NCBI GenBank assembly: GCA_965207165.1
Contig: OZ242265.1
Coordinates: forward strand, 3,627,373 to 3,691,372
Origin: Gammaproteobacteria bacterium
GTDB lineage: Bacteria; Pseudomonadota; Gammaproteobacteria; Eutrophobiales; Eutrophobiaceae
Direction of reading: 5' to 3'
Length of the DNA: 64,000 bases
Shown: one piece after another, positions 39,503-50,579 of the stretch
How positions within the stretch are numbered: position 1 is the stretch's first letter
Layout: every line of letters begins with the position of its first letter
The notes under the pieces: generated by a model
Told to the model about the DNA's origin: nothing
Database searches by the model: none
The model's input: only the letters and a program-made list of their open reading frames with translations
Translations under genes and position numbers: made by a program

Positions 39503-39527
39503 ATTTAAATAAACTTTTTATTTAAAT
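39503..39527. promoter_or_regulatory. AT-only perfect inverted repeat ATTTAAATAAA-ctt-TTTATTTAAAT, 65 bp upstream of the CarAa-like gene.
   Basis: 11-bp arms with a 3-nt loop; a candidate operator site. Confidence 0.4.
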
Positions 39528-39592
39528 TCCAGGAGTCATTATTTATACTTTAATGTTCACTGTCCTGGAATATTAAACATGGGGGTTTTGGC

Positions 39593-40882
39593 ATGGGTAA
39601 GTTTAATGAAATCGCGCTGGACCTGATGAAACGCACCGCAGCTTACGTCCCGGATTTTGAGTTCGAGGGGGCGGATCCCGCTACGGCTGCAAAACCCTGG
39701 CAAGCGTGGCTCAAGGCGGAACTGGGGTTTCGCAATCACTGGTACCCGACGGAGGCCAGCCGCAACATCAGGGATGGCGAGCACAAGGCGATCAAGTTGC
39801 TGGGTGAGGATATTCTCTACCTGCGCCGGGCCGGCCGCCTGTACGCGATTGAAGACCGCTGCAGCCACCGCGGCACGCGCTTCTCGCAACGGCCCGTGTG
39901 CTATACGGACGACACCATTACCTGCTGGCACCACGCATTCACCTTTAACCTGGACGACGGCCGCATTCGCTGCCTGTTGAACGACCCGGACTCATCCCTG
40001 GCCGGGCGCAAGGGGATAAAGAGCTACCCGGTGCGGGAAGTAAAAGGCGTAATTTTCACATTTGTCGGCGATATGAATCCGCCGCCGCCCCTGGAGCATG
40101 ACGTGCCCCCCGGGTTTTTTGACGAAGACATGGCGATCTGCGTGGCGGACCCCTACCTGGTAAAGGCAAACTGGCGCCTGGGTTCGGAAGGCGGTTACGA
40201 CCCGGGCCACCATTACATCCACAACTGGTCAAAATTCTCCATCAATTCACGTATACCCATGACCTTCGGCTGGGTGTCGAAGAAGGAAGCGGTGCTGGAG
40301 ACCAGTATTTACGAGCTGATGGAAAACGGCCCGAAGGGCTTCACCCGCCTGGCGGCGGAGACCAACATGTCCATGACTGCAAGAATACCCGGACGGAACG
40401 GCGGGGCGGATACCGATGTCATCCTGCCCATCGCCAAGGGCCAGTCCCCCCGGGAAATAGAAATTCTGGGACAGCACGCGTTCACCACCGAGGTCGGCGA
40501 GTGGCTACCCTGCGGGCTGAAGGTCAATCCATGGCCTTTCCCGGGGGTGGTTCACAACGAATACTACGTGCCGCGGGACGCCAACTCCCACTACTATTTC
40601 CAGTGCGGCTGGAAGCGCGTGGAAAATGAGGAGGAAGCCCGGGAATGGGCCGAAGGCGACCTGGGGCAGGTGCGCTGGAAAGTCCCTGTAGTCGATGACT
40701 TTACCATCCAGGATGCCGAGGCGCGGGAACACATCCACGAATTCTATGCCAGCGAAGACGGCTGGAACCAGGAGCAGACGGCCCGGTTCGATATCGAGCT
40801 GCTGATGTGGCGCGTGTTCGCCGGTGAGTATAGCCGCGGTATCCAGGAGGAAAAGCACACGAAAGGCCATTTCAAGAGATAA
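39593..40882 (+). CDS. CarAa-like single-subunit (class III-type) Rieske oxygenase, carbazole 1,9a-dioxygenase family (copy 1).
   Basis: The CSHRG...CWHHAFTF Rieske motif plus blocks matching the CarAa sequence recalled from memory: LGFRNHWYP, SNWRL-ENGYDP-H-YIH, LKVNP-P, HYYFQ and SRGIQ. Confidence 0.8.
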   Translation: MGKFNEIALDLMKRTAAYVPDFEFEGADPATAAKPWQAWLKAELGFRNHWYPTEASRNIRDGEHKAIKLLGEDILYLRRAGRLYAIEDRCSHRGTRFSQRPVCYTDDTITCWHHAFTFNLDDGRIRCLLNDPDSSLAGRKGIKSYPVREVKGVIFTFVGDMNPPPPLEHDVPPGFFDEDMAICVADPYLVKANWRLGSEGGYDPGHHYIHNWSKFSINSRIPMTFGWVSKKEAVLETSIYELMENGPKGFTRLAAETNMSMTARIPGRNGGADTDVILPIAKGQSPREIEILGQHAFTTEVGEWLPCGLKVNPWPFPGVVHNEYYVPRDANSHYYFQCGWKRVENEEEAREWAEGDLGQVRWKVPVVDDFTIQDAEAREHIHEFYASEDGWNQEQTARFDIELLMWRVFAGEYSRGIQEEKHTKGHFKR

Positions 40883-40888
40883 GAATCA

Positions 40889-41491
40889 ATGGCTACGGTA
40901 TTGCATATCGATTGCAGTGCTCGTACTGCCAATTCGGTCAGCCGCAGGTTATCCCGGATTGTGGTTGATCAACTCCTGGAGGCGGAACCGTCTGTCCGGG
41001 TGATCAGGCGGGACCTGGGCGCCTCGGCGCCGGCGCCCGTTAACGCGCTGGAGGCGGAAGCCTTTTTTACCCCGCCACCGGACAGGACCGGGGAGCAGGT
41101 CGGGGCGTTGGCAGATTCCGATGCCTTGACGGAAGAGTTGTTGCAGGCCGACACCGTGGTGCTGGGAACACCCATGTATAACTTCACGGTGCCGGCCAGC
41201 CTGAAAGCCTGGATCGATTACGTGGTCAGGCCCGGAAAGGCCTTCCGCCGGGTGGCTAACGGCCGGCTTGAAGGCCTGTGCGGAGGTAAAAAGGTCTATG
41301 TGTGCACGGCCGGCAGCGGCAAGTCCAGGGGCACGGATATGGACCACCTGCGCCCGTACCTGGACACGATCTTTGCGTTTATCGGGATCACGGATGTCGT
41401 TTATTTCGATGCGGAGGGACTGGCATGGGGAGAGCAGGAACGGGAACGGTCGATAAATGCAGCAATCGAGAACATTCAACAGAATCTGTAA
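40889..41491 (+). CDS. azoR: FMN-dependent NAD(P)H azoreductase/quinone reductase (AzoR/AcpD family); a candidate reductase for the oxygenase.
   Basis: A flavodoxin-like fold with VLHIDCSAR...LGTPMYNF...LKAWID blocks. Confidence 0.75.
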   Translation: MATVLHIDCSARTANSVSRRLSRIVVDQLLEAEPSVRVIRRDLGASAPAPVNALEAEAFFTPPPDRTGEQVGALADSDALTEELLQADTVVLGTPMYNFTVPASLKAWIDYVVRPGKAFRRVANGRLEGLCGGKKVYVCTAGSGKSRGTDMDHLRPYLDTIFAFIGITDVVYFDAEGLAWGEQERERSINAAIENIQQNL

Positions 41492-41530
41492 AATACACAG
41501 AACATATTTGGTGACGGGAGGAGAGACGGC

Positions 41531-48390: not shown

Positions 48391-48407
48391 CTACATGGTA
48401 CAAATCA

Positions 48408-48830
48408 ATGAATGATAACAAGGCAAAAGTGCTGCAGGGCAAGGCCACACCCCGGGGCAAGTATCCCCATGCCCGGCGCGCCGGGGACTACATCTTCATT
48501 TCCGGCACCAGCGCCAGGCAGGCCGATAATACGGTCATCGGCGCACGGGCAGTGGACGCGATGGGCACGTCGGAACTGGATATCCGGGCGCAGACCCGGG
48601 CCGTGTTGAACAATCTTGCCGATATACTGGCCAGTTTCGATGCAACACTGGATGACCTTACCGAAATAACGGCGTTTATTGTCAACATGAACGATTTTGC
48701 CGGGTATAATGAGGCCTACGCGGAAGTGTTCGACTATGACGGCCCGGCTCGTACCACGGTGGCCGTGCACCAGTTGCCGCACCCGCTGTTAGCGATAGAA
48801 ATAAAGGCCATTGCCTACAAACCTGAATAA
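48408..48830 (+). CDS. RidA/YjgF-family protein (2-aminomuconate deaminase-like).
   Basis: RidA fold blocks. By position it may correspond to the aminophenol-pathway deaminase gene, immediately upstream of the LigB-type dioxygenase genes. Confidence 0.75.
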
Positions 48831-48850
48831 GCTCAAGGGGGAGAGCAGAT

Positions 48851-49756
48851 ATGAATGATGGTCAGATTATTGCCGGATTTTTGGCGCCACACCCACCCCA
48901 CCTGGTTTACGGTGAAAACCCGCCGCAGAACGAACCCCGTTCCCAGGGCGGATGGGAACCGCTGAGGTGGGCTTACGAGCATGCCCGCCGGAGCCTGGAA
49001 GAATTGAAACCGGACGTGCTGCTGGTGCATTCTCCCCACTGGATCACCCAGCAGGGACATCATTTCCTGGGGGTAAAGGACTTGAGCGGTAAATCCGTTG
49101 ATCCTATATTCCCCAACCTGTTTCGTTACAAATTTGGACTGGAGGTGGACGTGGAACTGGCCGAGGCCTGCTGCAACGAGGCCGCGGACATGGGCTTGAC
49201 GACCAAGATGATGCGCAACCCGAACTTCCGCGTGGACTACGGCACCATCACCACCCTGCACATGATCCGCCCGCAGTGGGATATCCCGGTGGTCGGCATC
49301 TCCGCCAATAATTCGCCCTATTACCTGACCACGGAAGAGGGGCTGGGAGAGATGGATATCCTGGGCAAGGCCACGCGCAAGGCTATCGAGCAGTCCGGGC
49401 GACGCGCAGTGTTACTGGCGTCGAACACCCTGTGCCACTACCATTTCCACGAGGAACCGGTGCCGCCCGAGGATATGTCCCAGGAGCACCCGCAGAACTA
49501 TGCGGGCTACCTGTGGGATATGCGTATGATCGACCTGTTGCGGCAGGGAAAGATCAGCGAAGTCTTCAAGGTTTTGCCCCAGTTCATCGATGAAGCCTTT
49601 GCCGAGGTAAAGTCCGGCGCGTTCACCTGGATGTTTGCCGCCATGGATTACCCGGAACTGCCGGGAGAACTCTACGGTTACGGCACGGTGATCGGCACCG
49701 GCAACGCAGTCATGGAATGGAACCTGATAAAGGCCGGCCTGGCCAAGGCCGCGTGA
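48851..49756 (+). CDS. LigB-type (class III) extradiol dioxygenase, catalytic beta subunit (2-aminophenol 1,6-dioxygenase AmnB-like).
   Basis: [10 protein letters not shown]...LLVHSPHW His-rich LigB blocks; 301 aa. Confidence 0.75.
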
Positions 49757-49763
49757 GAGCGCT

Positions 49764-50579
49764 ATGAGCGTCGTATCTGCTTTCCTCGTCCCTGGTTCCC
49801 CATTGCCCTACGTGCAACGGGATAACCCCCCGTGGGGCGAAATCGCCACCGCCATGGAAACTGCCGGCAAGGCCCTGGCCGCCTCAGCCCCGGACCTGAT
49901 CGTCATCTATTCCACCCAGTGGATCGCGGTGCTGGACCAGTTGTGGCAGACCCGGGCCGTCCTGCAGGGCCTGCACGTTGATGAGAACTGGCATGAGTAC
50001 GGCGACCTGCCGTTCGATATGAAGATCGACGTCGAATTTGCCGAACTGGCGTTGAAAAAGACCGCCGCAGCGGGCATCAAGGCCAAAGGCGTGGACTATG
50101 ATCATTTCCCGGTGGATACCGGCGCCATCGTCGCGTCCAACTTCCTTAACCCGGGCGGGGACATCCCCCTGGCCATCACGTCCAATAACGTCTACCACGA
50201 CTGGCAGATGACGGAATCCCTGGGCCGGGTAGCTGCCGAATCAGCAGCCGAGCTCGACCGGAAACTGGCCGTTATCGGCGTAGGCGGCCTGTCCGGCTCC
50301 ATCTACCGTCACGTGATTGACATCGGCGATGACAAAATCGCCGACCCCGCGGAGGATGAATGGAACCGGAAGATCCTGGCCATAATGGAGCAGGGCGACA
50401 CGGAGACCTTGTTACAGACCTGCCACGACTATGCCGCCGCGGCCCGGGTGGACATGGGCTTCAAACACTTCGCCTTCATCATGGGCGCCACCGGCAACCG
50501 CTTTAACAGCGCCAAGGTCCACGCCTACGGCCCCCTCTACGGCAGCGGCGCCGCAGTCGTCGAATTCGATCTGAATTGA
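49764..50579 (+). CDS. LigB-type extradiol dioxygenase, second (alpha, AmnA-like) subunit.
   Basis: A LigB-homologous 271-aa protein immediately downstream of the catalytic subunit. Confidence 0.7.
   Translation: MSVVSAFLVPGSPLPYVQRDNPPWGEIATAMETAGKALAASAPDLIVIYSTQWIAVLDQLWQTRAVLQGLHVDENWHEYGDLPFDMKIDVEFAELALKKTAAAGIKAKGVDYDHFPVDTGAIVASNFLNPGGDIPLAITSNNVYHDWQMTESLGRVAAESAAELDRKLAVIGVGGLSGSIYRHVIDIGDDKIADPAEDEWNRKILAIMEQGDTETLLQTCHDYAAAARVDMGFKHFAFIMGATGNRFNSAKVHAYGPLYGSGAAVVEFDLN

Follow-up and report, generated by a model that had tools for sequence, protein, structure and literature searches.

CarAa-like Rieske oxygenases, a thioredoxin reductase and predicted 2-aminophenol-cleavage genes share a gene island in uncultured Gammaproteobacteria

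We analyzed a 64,000-nucleotide stretch of the forward strand of contig OZ242265.1 (positions 3,627,373 to 3,691,372; assembly GCA_965207165.1) from a Gammaproteobacteria bacterium of the family Eutrophobiaceae; this whole stretch is the window referred to below. Between 39.5 and 50.6 kb it carries an island that an earlier note, made from the sequence alone, had read as a carbazole-type oxygenase cluster with an embedded thioredoxin reductase gene, trxB, and a separate dioxygenase resembling 2-aminophenol 1,6-dioxygenase. On the plus strand, the island runs from a CarAa-like oxygenase (copy 1) through an azoreductase, a BphC-type dioxygenase, TrxB and an alpha/beta hydrolase to a second CarAa-like oxygenase (copy 2), an isochorismatase-fold hydrolase, a RidA-family deaminase and the two subunits AmnB and AmnA; a minus-strand oxygenase gene of the RPE65/CCO family lies between the hydrolase gene and copy 2. 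The open reading frame (ORF) listing and profile searches confirmed that all eleven genes are real and correctly typed, and each sits where the note had placed it and belongs to the family that it had named. The E-values of the eleven family matches (1e-25 to 1e-170) exclude chance. Rfam and tRNA scans found no RNA genes.

The two oxygenases, at 39593..40882 and 46499..47764 (both plus strand), had been taken for CarAa-like homomeric Rieske enzymes, and our searches agreed. Each combines a Rieske domain with PF11723 (E 6e-64 for copy 1 and 1.5e-64 for copy 2; 216 and 218 bits against a Pfam cut-off of 24.4), as expected of the homotrimer-type CarAa family. The closest solved relatives of both are CarAa chains (E ~1e-85), followed by OxoO, the 2-oxo-1,2-dihydroquinoline 8-monooxygenase (1z01; E 3e-48 and 2.5e-65), with phthalate-type and other Rieske enzymes at E 1e-11 or weaker. 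By this measure, the pair sides with CarAa and not with KshA or the phthalate family. The blocks quoted in the note (LGFRNHWYP, NWRL..E.GYDP.H..IH, LKVNP.P, HYYFQ and RGIQ) were all seen in alignments with solved CarAa relatives. The Rieske ligands C69/H71/C90/H93, the bridging D180 and the iron ligands H183/H187/D333 (CA10 numbering) are kept in both copies and in the aligned representative homologues. No gene for a small (beta) subunit follows either copy: AzoR comes after the first and the isochorismatase-like gene after the second, and neither has a beta-subunit-type Pfam domain.

The carbazole-type label stands for fold and family but not for substrate. The two copies are 49% identical to one another and 37-39% identical to genuine CarAa proteins, for which we took the reference genes of pCAR1 and a KA1-type plasmid (38% between copy 1 and pCAR1 CarAa). 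Neighbour-joining analysis of 94 family members placed both copies in a superclade together with homologues from Frankia, Paraburkholderia, Myxococcota, Binatia, Phycisphaerae and many marine metagenome-assembled genomes (MAGs), and this superclade was split from the true-CarAa clade (pCAR1, KA1 and relatives) in 200/200 bootstraps on a 37-sequence subset. The pocket is also altered. At the positions that, by the structural literature on CARDO, line the hydrophobic carbazole pocket (I184, A259, I262, F275, Q282 and N330), the window copies have H/Q for I184, T/L for A259, V for I262, H for Q282 and T for N330. Judging from these replacements, the enzymes belong to the CarAa family and probably act on a substrate more polar than carbazole.

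A scan of one-genome-per-species GTDB contigs, with synteny scored by tblastn, yielded 75 loci, to which the L-numbers below refer. Nineteen of them are close to the island (CarAa-1 at least 89% identical) and come from 17 species-level Gammaproteobacteria MAGs and one ENA contig. Several MAG names suggest sponge or coral hosts, and ankyrin genes in the window fit host association. Closed MAG chromosomes with the island include OZ220696.1, OZ244905.1, OZ252091.1, OZ244846.1, OZ220714.1 and OY282354.1. The common gene order is amidase, M20-like, VOC, Rieske ferredoxin and DUF1989 (the last two on the minus strand), CoxG, CarAa1, AzoR, BphC, TrxB and hydrolase, then, in some genomes, CarAa2 and the isochorismatase-like gene, and finally the deaminase, AmnB and AmnA. 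All 19 close loci preserve the run AzoR-BphC-TrxB-hydrolase. AzoR, BphC, TrxB and the Rieske ferredoxin are each present in 19/19, followed by CoxG (17/19), AmnB (16/19), DUF1989 (15/19), CarAa2 (14/19), the isochorismatase-like gene (6/19) and CCO (1/19).

Beyond the close loci, a sister clade (CarAa-1 ~70%) has the ferredoxin, CarAa1, AzoR, M20, BphC and hydrolase genes without TrxB or Amn, and AzoR adjoins CarAa-1 there too. Across the 61 superclade loci, we found the M20-like gene in 37, BphC in 34 and the hydrolase in 31, compared with 0/15 for all three in loci with CarAa/OxoO-like genes. Superclade oxygenases co-occur with M20, BphC, hydrolase and amidase genes in Myxococcota, Phycisphaerae, Paraburkholderia and Steroidobacteraceae, and CarAa-2 is elsewhere linked to hydrolase, BphC, M20 and isochorismatase-like genes (L048-L053). 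The context of two distant loci (L026 and L049) comprises short-chain dehydrogenases/reductases, a P450, luciferase-like monooxygenases and MarR, and gave no hint of the substrate. One MAG (CBDBDW01; L007 and L009) carries two CarAa1-to-hydrolase blocks on different contigs, and one chromosome (OY282354.1; L012 and L056) has CarAa-2 ~2 Mb from the rest of its island; modules move independently of one another.

At the 3' end of the island, the claimed AmnBA-like two-subunit dioxygenase of the LigB type turned out to be a closer relative of the known enzyme than the note had claimed. AmnB, the beta (catalytic) subunit of 2-aminophenol 1,6-dioxygenase (48851..49756, plus strand), is 78% identical to its solved counterpart (8ihg_A, E 2e-169), and AmnA, the alpha subunit (49764..50579, plus strand), is 51% identical to its own (3vsg_A, E 5e-93); the two LigB-fold subunits are adjacent, beta then alpha. 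The RidA gene in front of them (48408..48830, plus strand), described earlier as 2-aminomuconate-deaminase-like, matched specifically such a deaminase (6izh, E 1.4e-50, 59% identity), with other RidA proteins at E 1.6e-18 or weaker. It is 59% identical to the RidA in the deaminase position of the amn operon of Pseudomonas veronii and 32% identical to the one at the amnJ position of that operon, in front of amnB. That operon, on an IncP plasmid from an aniline-contaminated site, also shares 74% nucleotide identity with the island amnB. In a megablast of the whole island against plasmids, amnB on the P. veronii plasmid was the single match, so the island is not known plasmid cargo.

Preceding the deaminase gene is the isochorismatase-family hydrolase that the note had placed after copy 2, a predicted cysteine amidohydrolase (47767..48390, plus strand; PF00857, E 4.5e-28) with a G..T..CV cysteine motif. 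Its start is TTG 47767, 2 nt past the CarAa-2 stop, and the 335-aa ORF from 47383 is overlong.

The canonical amn layout is amnRJBACDFEHG; amnBA is required for 2-aminophenol use, and picolinate arises non-enzymatically, as reported for LB400 (PMC3790839). Unlike the amn operon, the island has no amnR, amnJ or amnC among the window ORFs scanned. Nor did Pfam and NCBIfam searches of nearly all larger window ORFs find an aldehyde dehydrogenase, a hydratase/aldolase or a 4-oxalocrotonate branch. Genes at another site would supply amnC-type functions, or else picolinate would form from the semialdehyde by cyclisation, as for LB400.

We turned up the expected families for the middle of the island as well. 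The flavodoxin-fold azoreductase reported after copy 1 (40889..41491, plus strand) is an AzoR-type FMN-dependent NADH quinone/azo reductase (Flavodoxin_2, PF02525, E 2e-45; Pseudomonas putida AzoR1, 4c0w, E 7e-39). Next comes a two-domain extradiol dioxygenase (41531..42442, plus strand) of type I (BphC/DHBD-type) and not of the CarBaBb type, as the note had it, with BphC_D1 and Glyoxalase domains; its ligand-bearing motifs GHIV, GHFMFE and IEYG, which form the 2-His-1-Glu iron site, align with 1han (E 3e-54). It scored 283 bits against TIGR03213, below the equivalog cut-off of 366, and its substrate is therefore probably not 2,3-dihydroxybiphenyl.

The alpha/beta hydrolase (43448..44314, plus strand) comes after the extradiol dioxygenase and belongs to an atypical subfamily resembling meta-cleavage product (MCP) hydrolases. 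Its best sequence matches are MCP hydrolases (DxnB2, CumD, HsaD, CarC and BphD), all below 30% identity (28% for CarC), and it has the nucleophile Ser, the His and, behind the latter, the Trp. The subfamily (31 sequences, 36-100% identical: the window protein and 30 homologues from L002-L053) has the nucleophile elbow GESLG where MCP hydrolases have GNSMG, and all 31 members have an invariant Asn (LWTR[YHF]NPGQ) in place of the canonical catalytic Asp. By contrast, CarC-type hydrolases beside true CarAa genes keep both the Asp (G-K-x-D) and GNSMG. Thus, the earlier assignment as a CarC/BphD-like C-C hydrolase stands as far as the nearest relatives go, but with the triad Asp replaced, the C-C hydrolase label is uncertain.

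These results bear on whether the island could be an ordinary car cluster in shuffled order, converting carbazole to anthranilate. Such a cluster would likewise bring together a PF11723 oxygenase, a Rieske ferredoxin, an extradiol dioxygenase and an MCP-hydrolase-like protein without a dihydrodiol dehydrogenase. We nevertheless regard this as very improbable. The oxygenases are distant from CarAa and lie in a clade of their own, with polar residues now at pocket positions I184, Q282 and N330; the ring-cleavage enzyme is of type I and not CarBaBb; CarAd is absent, and no anthranilate 1,2-dioxygenase was identified in the window; the downstream module serves 2-aminophenol rather than anthranilate or catechol; and the hydrolase subfamily departs from CarC at the catalytic Asp.

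Between the BphC-type dioxygenase and the hydrolase, trxB (42485..43432, plus strand) encodes a canonical low-Mr thioredoxin reductase. The note had called it bona fide on its CATC motif, and we observed a TIGR01292 score of 395.7 bits against a cut-off of 343.45, 70% identity to the best solved thioredoxin reductase (TrxR) and the motifs CATCDG and HRRDKLR in the alignment. CATC is kept in the 18 close island orthologues in which the site is covered (the L004 gene is cut by a contig end), and no island orthologue contains a stop codon. Island-type TrxBs are 77-98% identical within the clade, or at least 86% leaving out L015. The matches listed in a protein search were all at least 87% identical, and one metagenome scan gave a single island-type trxB, the rest being ordinary trxB genes at 70-78%.

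The gap between BphC and trxB is 42 nt in the window, without a terminator. The trxB-hydrolase gap, earlier given as 3 nt, is probably 15 nt: ATG 43448, behind a GGAG box, is a more probable hydrolase start than 43436, and a 15-nt spacer recurs in eight relatives. From this arrangement, co-transcription of trxB and the hydrolase gene in this genome is close to certain. The note's placing of trxB inside a catabolic cluster held up: the gene is kept intact in 19/19 related loci and is tightly spaced to the hydrolase. On that conservation, we conclude that the placement is not an accident of one genome.

Alternatively, trxB could be the lineage's housekeeping thioredoxin reductase gene that landed inside the operon with no functional tie to the pathway. 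Its product is indistinguishable in sequence from ordinary proteobacterial TrxB, and next in similarity to the island type (70-78%) come ordinary trxB genes with unrelated surroundings. A thioredoxin gene is not adjacent, and none with a CGPC motif was found within the 64-kb window; thioredoxin genes are, however, usually unlinked to trxB. Many relatives also have a spacer of 100-255 nt with a structured element 5' of trxB, which could hold its own control region. Even so, we consider this alternative unlikely. The neighbours of the ordinary trxB genes have no homologue anywhere in the window, and the island gene is thus not in an ancestral housekeeping setting; the two catabolic genes on either side of it adjoin one another in the sister clade (L026-L028); and the position of trxB, tightly coupled to the hydrolase, is kept across at least 17 species-level genomes. 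We favor the reading that AzoR and TrxB are selected parts of the operon that would handle quinone and quinone-imine intermediates.

In the window, the spacer 5' of trxB contains ATCTGCGTCATCTGCGG (42451..42467, plus strand), which is unique in the window (0 expected by chance) and lies at the same site in 11 loci. A long inverted repeat whose arms each consist of three heptamers (CGCAGAT / ATCTGCG) lies immediately 5' of trxB in most relatives; examples are L016:12850-13092 and the BphC-trxB spacers of L005, L025, L008, L010, L011, L013, L014 and L035. The L016 copy has a folding energy of -74.7 kcal/mol (z -7.8). The window, L003 and L032 retain the trxB-proximal arm only, which in the window is ATCTGCGTCATCTGCGG. 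The arms co-vary between genomes, with CACAGAT/ATCTGTG in L007 and CACAGAG/CTCTGTG in L002, and the 148-nt interior of L005 matches that of L025 in reverse complement (~85% identity). This indicates that the segment was flipped between species, like an inverton or a miniature inverted-repeat transposable element (MITE). Promoter scans gave weak consensus matches only, and within the relatives' inverted-repeat element they found nothing like a sigma-70 promoter. Elsewhere in the island, a palindrome with a 12-bp stem (TGGGGTCAG...CTGACCCCA; 37906..37933) between the convergent VOC and ferredoxin genes looks, from its sequence, like a bidirectional terminator. Palindromes of this type, similar to repetitive extragenic palindromic (REP) elements, and of a second family (GTCATTCCGG...CCGGAATCCAGTAG) fill variable operon spacers in relatives (L002, L003, L004, L008-L011, L013, L014 and L035).

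The Rieske-type ferredoxin (37977..38315, minus strand; PF00355, E 1.4e-15) is 40% identical to CarAc of pCAR1 and, on that likeness, is the probable electron carrier for the CarAa-like oxygenases. No reductase of the CarAd/FNR type or the GR type was found in the scanned window or the 61 superclade loci by tblastn with CarAd-like and TrxB/NDH-2-like queries, a search of limited sensitivity; CarAd-like reductase genes do flank CarAa/OxoO-like genes in L068, L073 and L080. A 434-aa Pyr_redox_2 gene beside the ferredoxin gene in L002 was considered as a ferredoxin reductase and rejected, as its N terminus looks like NDH-2 and it occurs in L002 only.

With such a reductase missing from these loci, TrxB, AzoR or both might be the electron donor to the ferredoxin and oxygenases, in place of a CarAd- or BphA4-type enzyme. 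AzoR lies 6-21 nt behind CarAa-1 in many genomes, the 70% clade included, and TrxB belongs to the same flavoprotein superfamily as the TrxR-like ferredoxin reductases. We find this idea more doubtful still than a stray housekeeping trxB. TrxB is wholly canonical (CATC, HRR, ~70% identity to housekeeping TrxRs and a score over the equivalog cut-off), and all TrxR-like ferredoxin reductases known to us are without CxxC; moreover, the 70% clade works without TrxB, and L028 is without an AzoR homologue. AzoR-type enzymes are obligate two-electron hydride donors and hence a poor match to the one-electron Rieske centre, and unlinked reductases are common for Rieske systems. A role of AzoR and TrxB in quinone handling remains our preferred account of the pair.

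The note had also listed a Tat-signal CCO gene between the two oxygenase gene sets. The gene is present (44358..45914, minus strand; carotenoid/lignostilbene-type, PF03055, E 1e-112), and its product has a TTRRNFL motif, but it is a variable insertion and not part of the wiring. The 2,181-bp segment 44318-46498 is missing in the closest relatives L016 and L025 (98-99% identical), in which CarAa-2 starts ~24 bp past the hydrolase stop, and the gene is also absent from the hydrolase/CarAa-2 site in L003 and L010. Among 20 genomes it occurs in two, the window and L032, at the same site but in opposite orientations (plus strand in L032). The remainder of the segment is an AT-rich spacer (45915..46498; GC down to 0.36) whose minus strand codes for two small putative membrane proteins of 75 aa (46035-46262) and 30 aa (45946-46038). 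No convincing repeats flanking the gene were found to explain an inversion, and its orientation may be an assembly inversion. From these comparisons, we interpret CCO as a recent, inverted, strain-specific insertion outside the conserved pathway, one that interrupts the operon and leaves two units in this genome.

The earlier account named the Rieske ferredoxin but left out two conserved partners further upstream, an amidase and an M20 enzyme related to NaaA. The amidase-signature amidase (34715..36073, plus strand; PF01425, E 7e-75) is present in 15/19 close loci and in distant loci with CarAa-like genes. The M20 hydrolase (36080..37429, plus strand; 449 aa) is divergent and has no Pfam match; its only sequence matches in the PDB are two NaaA sequences (5k8m-5k8p; E 2e-20, 22-23% identity). 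Its AlphaFold2 model (pLDDT 91.6) gave 5k8o as the top Foldseek hit, with TM scores of 0.82-0.86 compared with ~0.7 for DapE/ArgE. By sequence and predicted fold, therefore, the closest solved relative is the 5-nitroanthranilate aminohydrolase NaaA, although the protein may be an ordinary N-deacylase. A single-domain VOC/glyoxalase-fold protein follows (37455..37892, plus strand; PF00903, E 2e-11) and is syntenic in close relatives. Beyond the ferredoxin gene and in the same orientation lies a DUF1989 gene of the urea-amidolyase-associated family (38293..38919, minus strand; PF09347, E 6.5e-34; TIGR03424 weak). The plus-strand operon then opens with a CoxG/SRPBCC ligand-binding-fold protein (39048..39491; PF06240, E 7e-32), and the minus-strand ORF 38907-39497 that overlaps it had no family match in the profile scan.

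We hold with moderate confidence that these genes form a chromosomal island of one uncultured Gammaproteobacteria clade, encoding an upper route that would open an N-containing aromatic compound (with two rings or a fused hetero-ring) for catabolism or detoxification. In the first step, going by homology, the Rieske ferredoxin would feed both CarAa-like oxygenases, which would hydroxylate the substrate at or beside the ring junction; because the operon has no dihydrodiol dehydrogenase gene, the diol would have to arise without one, as in carbazole/dioxin angular dioxygenation. The BphC-type dioxygenase would then open the ring, and the atypical alpha/beta hydrolase would split the fission product. 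The other ring would be freed as 2-aminophenol or a close derivative, and the NaaA-like M20 enzyme, the amidase and the cysteine amidohydrolase might remove or exchange nitrogen substituents, two proposals drawn from gene adjacency only. The fourth step is the best supported: AmnBA would turn 2-aminophenol into 2-aminomuconic semialdehyde, a dehydrogenase that the island does not encode would oxidise it, and the RidA-type deaminase would free ammonia; without the dehydrogenase, the semialdehyde would cyclise to picolinate. Aminophenols readily oxidise to thiol-reactive species. AzoR could accordingly re-reduce quinones and TrxB restore the thiol pool, against thiol-attacking quinones and quinone imines from auto-oxidised catechol or aminophenol intermediates. 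The sequence proposed in the earlier note, from angular dioxygenation through aminophenol cleavage to deamination, is a reasonable hypothesis on the basis of gene adjacency.

Several points weigh against this interpretation. Close kinship to characterised enzymes underlies the AmnBA and deaminase assignments only, and the predicted link from the CarAa module to 2-aminophenol comes from adjacency alone. The scanned parts of the 64-kb window have no ferredoxin reductase, amnC, lower meta-pathway gene or regulator. Some genomes do without CarAa-2 or the isochorismatase-like gene, and TrxB and Amn are late additions, since the 70% clade is without both. Without the canonical triad Asp, C-C hydrolysis by the predicted hydrolase is not assured, and the island trxB may be an extra copy or the sole copy.

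Some of the same observations would suit two independent, mainly detoxifying modules on one transcript, with amn acting on free 2-aminophenols from the host or environment and CarAa/BphC/hydrolase on an unrelated catecholic or quinonoid compound. The nucleotide identity to the Pseudomonas IncP plasmid suggests horizontal acquisition of the amn genes, and the 70% clade does not have them; one genome has ~22 kb between the two halves (L007, L047). The missing lower-pathway genes fit ring-opening detoxification, and the combination of AzoR with a VOC dioxygenase and an alpha/beta hydrolase is reminiscent of the regulons for quinone detoxification. However, amn lies directly behind the hydrolase or CarAa-2 in 16/19 loci with short spacers, even where CarAa-2 is absent (L002, L005). 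Selection for co-expression would give such linkage, and the conserved adjacency therefore counts against two separate modules, which we think improbable.

Within the single upper route that we prefer, the substrate can be approached only by speculation. One class would yield a catechol from one ring and 2-aminophenol from the other, such as phenoxazine, phenoxazinone or compounds like 2-hydroxydiphenylamine; another would be benzo-fused lactams or quinolones that, as with OxoO, receive the hydroxyl group next to the nitrogen. We also entertain a broader and distinctly tentative scenario. In it, the CarAa-like superclade, the NaaA-like aminohydrolase, the BphC-type enzyme and the Asp-less hydrolase would constitute a widespread, undescribed marine and soil pathway for an abundant natural N-aromatic compound, and sponge and coral symbionts would have extended it with amn and the AzoR/TrxB pair. 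The pair, integral to the pathway, would recycle quinone imines or drive the Rieske oxygenases in place of a ferredoxin reductase, and expression might be switched by the invertible element 5' of trxB. As candidate compounds, host alkaloids or pigments would qualify as well as phenoxazines, phenoxazinones, benzo-fused lactams and quinolones.

In the literature searched, we found no account of a PF11723 cluster like the island, of a carbazole dioxygenase in sponge symbionts, of CarAa-type oxygenases accompanied by NaaA-like proteins, or of trxB within an operon of the aminophenol or meta-cleavage kind. If the proposed route is correct, it would show how uncultivated yet abundant sponge and coral symbionts deal with N-aromatics, possibly host defence chemicals, a task for which the literature searched describes no genes. 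It would also mark three uncharacterised, experimentally tractable subfamilies: the polar-pocket CarAa-type clade, the NaaA-like M20 enzymes, which may carry out hydrolytic aromatic deamination, and the acid-less alpha/beta hydrolases. A canonical thioredoxin reductase would be fixed by selection inside an aromatic catabolic operon, for which we know of no earlier case, and this would bear on quinone-imine toxicity during arylamine degradation.

The surroundings of the island hold further genes. Upstream, it reaches to ~28 kb, and the block 28166-34672 is partly syntenic in L002. Two genes in this block encode Rieske alpha subunits of the Ring_hydroxyl_A type (29338-30564 and 32435-33772), with an unannotated ORF of ~115 aa behind each; it also encodes a luciferase-like monooxygenase (minus strand), an FmdA-type formamidase (31404-32531), a SnoaL_4 protein and an SRPBCC protein (minus strand). 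The two alpha subunits match anthranilate dioxygenase models only far under the cut-off. A low-GC patch (0.49) at 26327-28169, which may be the left edge of the island, carries genes for a HigB/Gp49-like toxin with a helix-turn-helix antitoxin (26327-26951), along with a minus-strand SnoaL_4 gene and, at 27657-28169, one for a CesT-family protein resembling type III secretion chaperones. Further out, a second isochorismatase-fold hydrolase (23813-24397, minus strand) adjoins a Cyclase/arylformamidase-family protein (24428-25420, minus strand); by family, this pair are further candidate C-N hydrolases for arylamine derivatives. The window starts with two ankyrin-repeat proteins (367 and 820 aa; 44-3578), and eukaryote-like repeat proteins such as these are typical of sponge symbionts. 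Downstream, between amnA and leuA, minus-strand genes at 50825-54173 encode a cytochrome c, a pyrroloquinoline quinone (PQQ) dehydrogenase of the methanol/ethanol family and a metallo-beta-lactamase (MBL)-fold protein. The MBL gene directly follows amnA in L003, L011 and L013, so the pair of PQQ dehydrogenase and cytochrome is variable. We considered the MBL-fold protein (52956-54173) as a benzoxazolinone-type source of 2-aminophenol and set it aside: it scored weakly as quinoprotein-relay metallohydrolase 2 and sits with the PQQ dehydrogenase and cytochrome c.

Among known systems, the car operon (Pseudomonas resinovorans CA10 pCAR1 and Novosphingobium KA1) likewise has a PF11723 homotrimer-type oxygenase without a beta subunit and with the metal ligands kept, and in both an extradiol dioxygenase and an alpha/beta hydrolase follow the oxygenase with no dihydrodiol dehydrogenase. 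It differs in having the LigB-type CarBaBb where the island has a type I dioxygenase, in having CarAd, which the island is without, and in leading to anthranilate where the island's downstream module is for 2-aminophenol. OxoO acts on a benzo-fused lactam beside the ring nitrogen, a chemistry that would fit the island's many amidohydrolases; by score, however, it is more distant than CarAa, and the island is without an OxoR-type reductase. NaaA of Bradyrhizobium JS329 and the window M20-like protein are both divergent M20 enzymes encoded beside aromatic ring-cleavage genes. With the amn operons of Pseudomonas AP-3, JS45, Comamonas CNB-1 and Burkholderia xenovorans LB400, the island shares a close AmnB, AmnA and deaminase, yet its amn part comprises three genes only, in the order deaminase-B-A, fused behind the CarAa/BphC/hydrolase operon.

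The quinone-detoxification regulons of Bacillus and Staphylococcus comprise AzoR-type reductases, ring-cleavage (VOC) dioxygenases and an alpha/beta hydrolase (PMC6798810). AzoR1/2, the dioxygenases CatE/MhqE and the alpha/beta hydrolase MhqD of the Bacillus subtilis MhqR/YodB and Staphylococcus aureus QsrR/MhqR regulons all have counterparts in the island. In these organisms, trxB is controlled by Spx, and its product acts against quinones jointly with such enzymes. These Firmicutes genes are scattered, whereas the island gathers its counterparts in one operon of a Gammaproteobacterium, together with Rieske oxygenases and amn genes. Overall, the parts are all of known kinds and the logic is that of classical meta-cleavage, which the proposed route, if true, would extend without overturning any principle.

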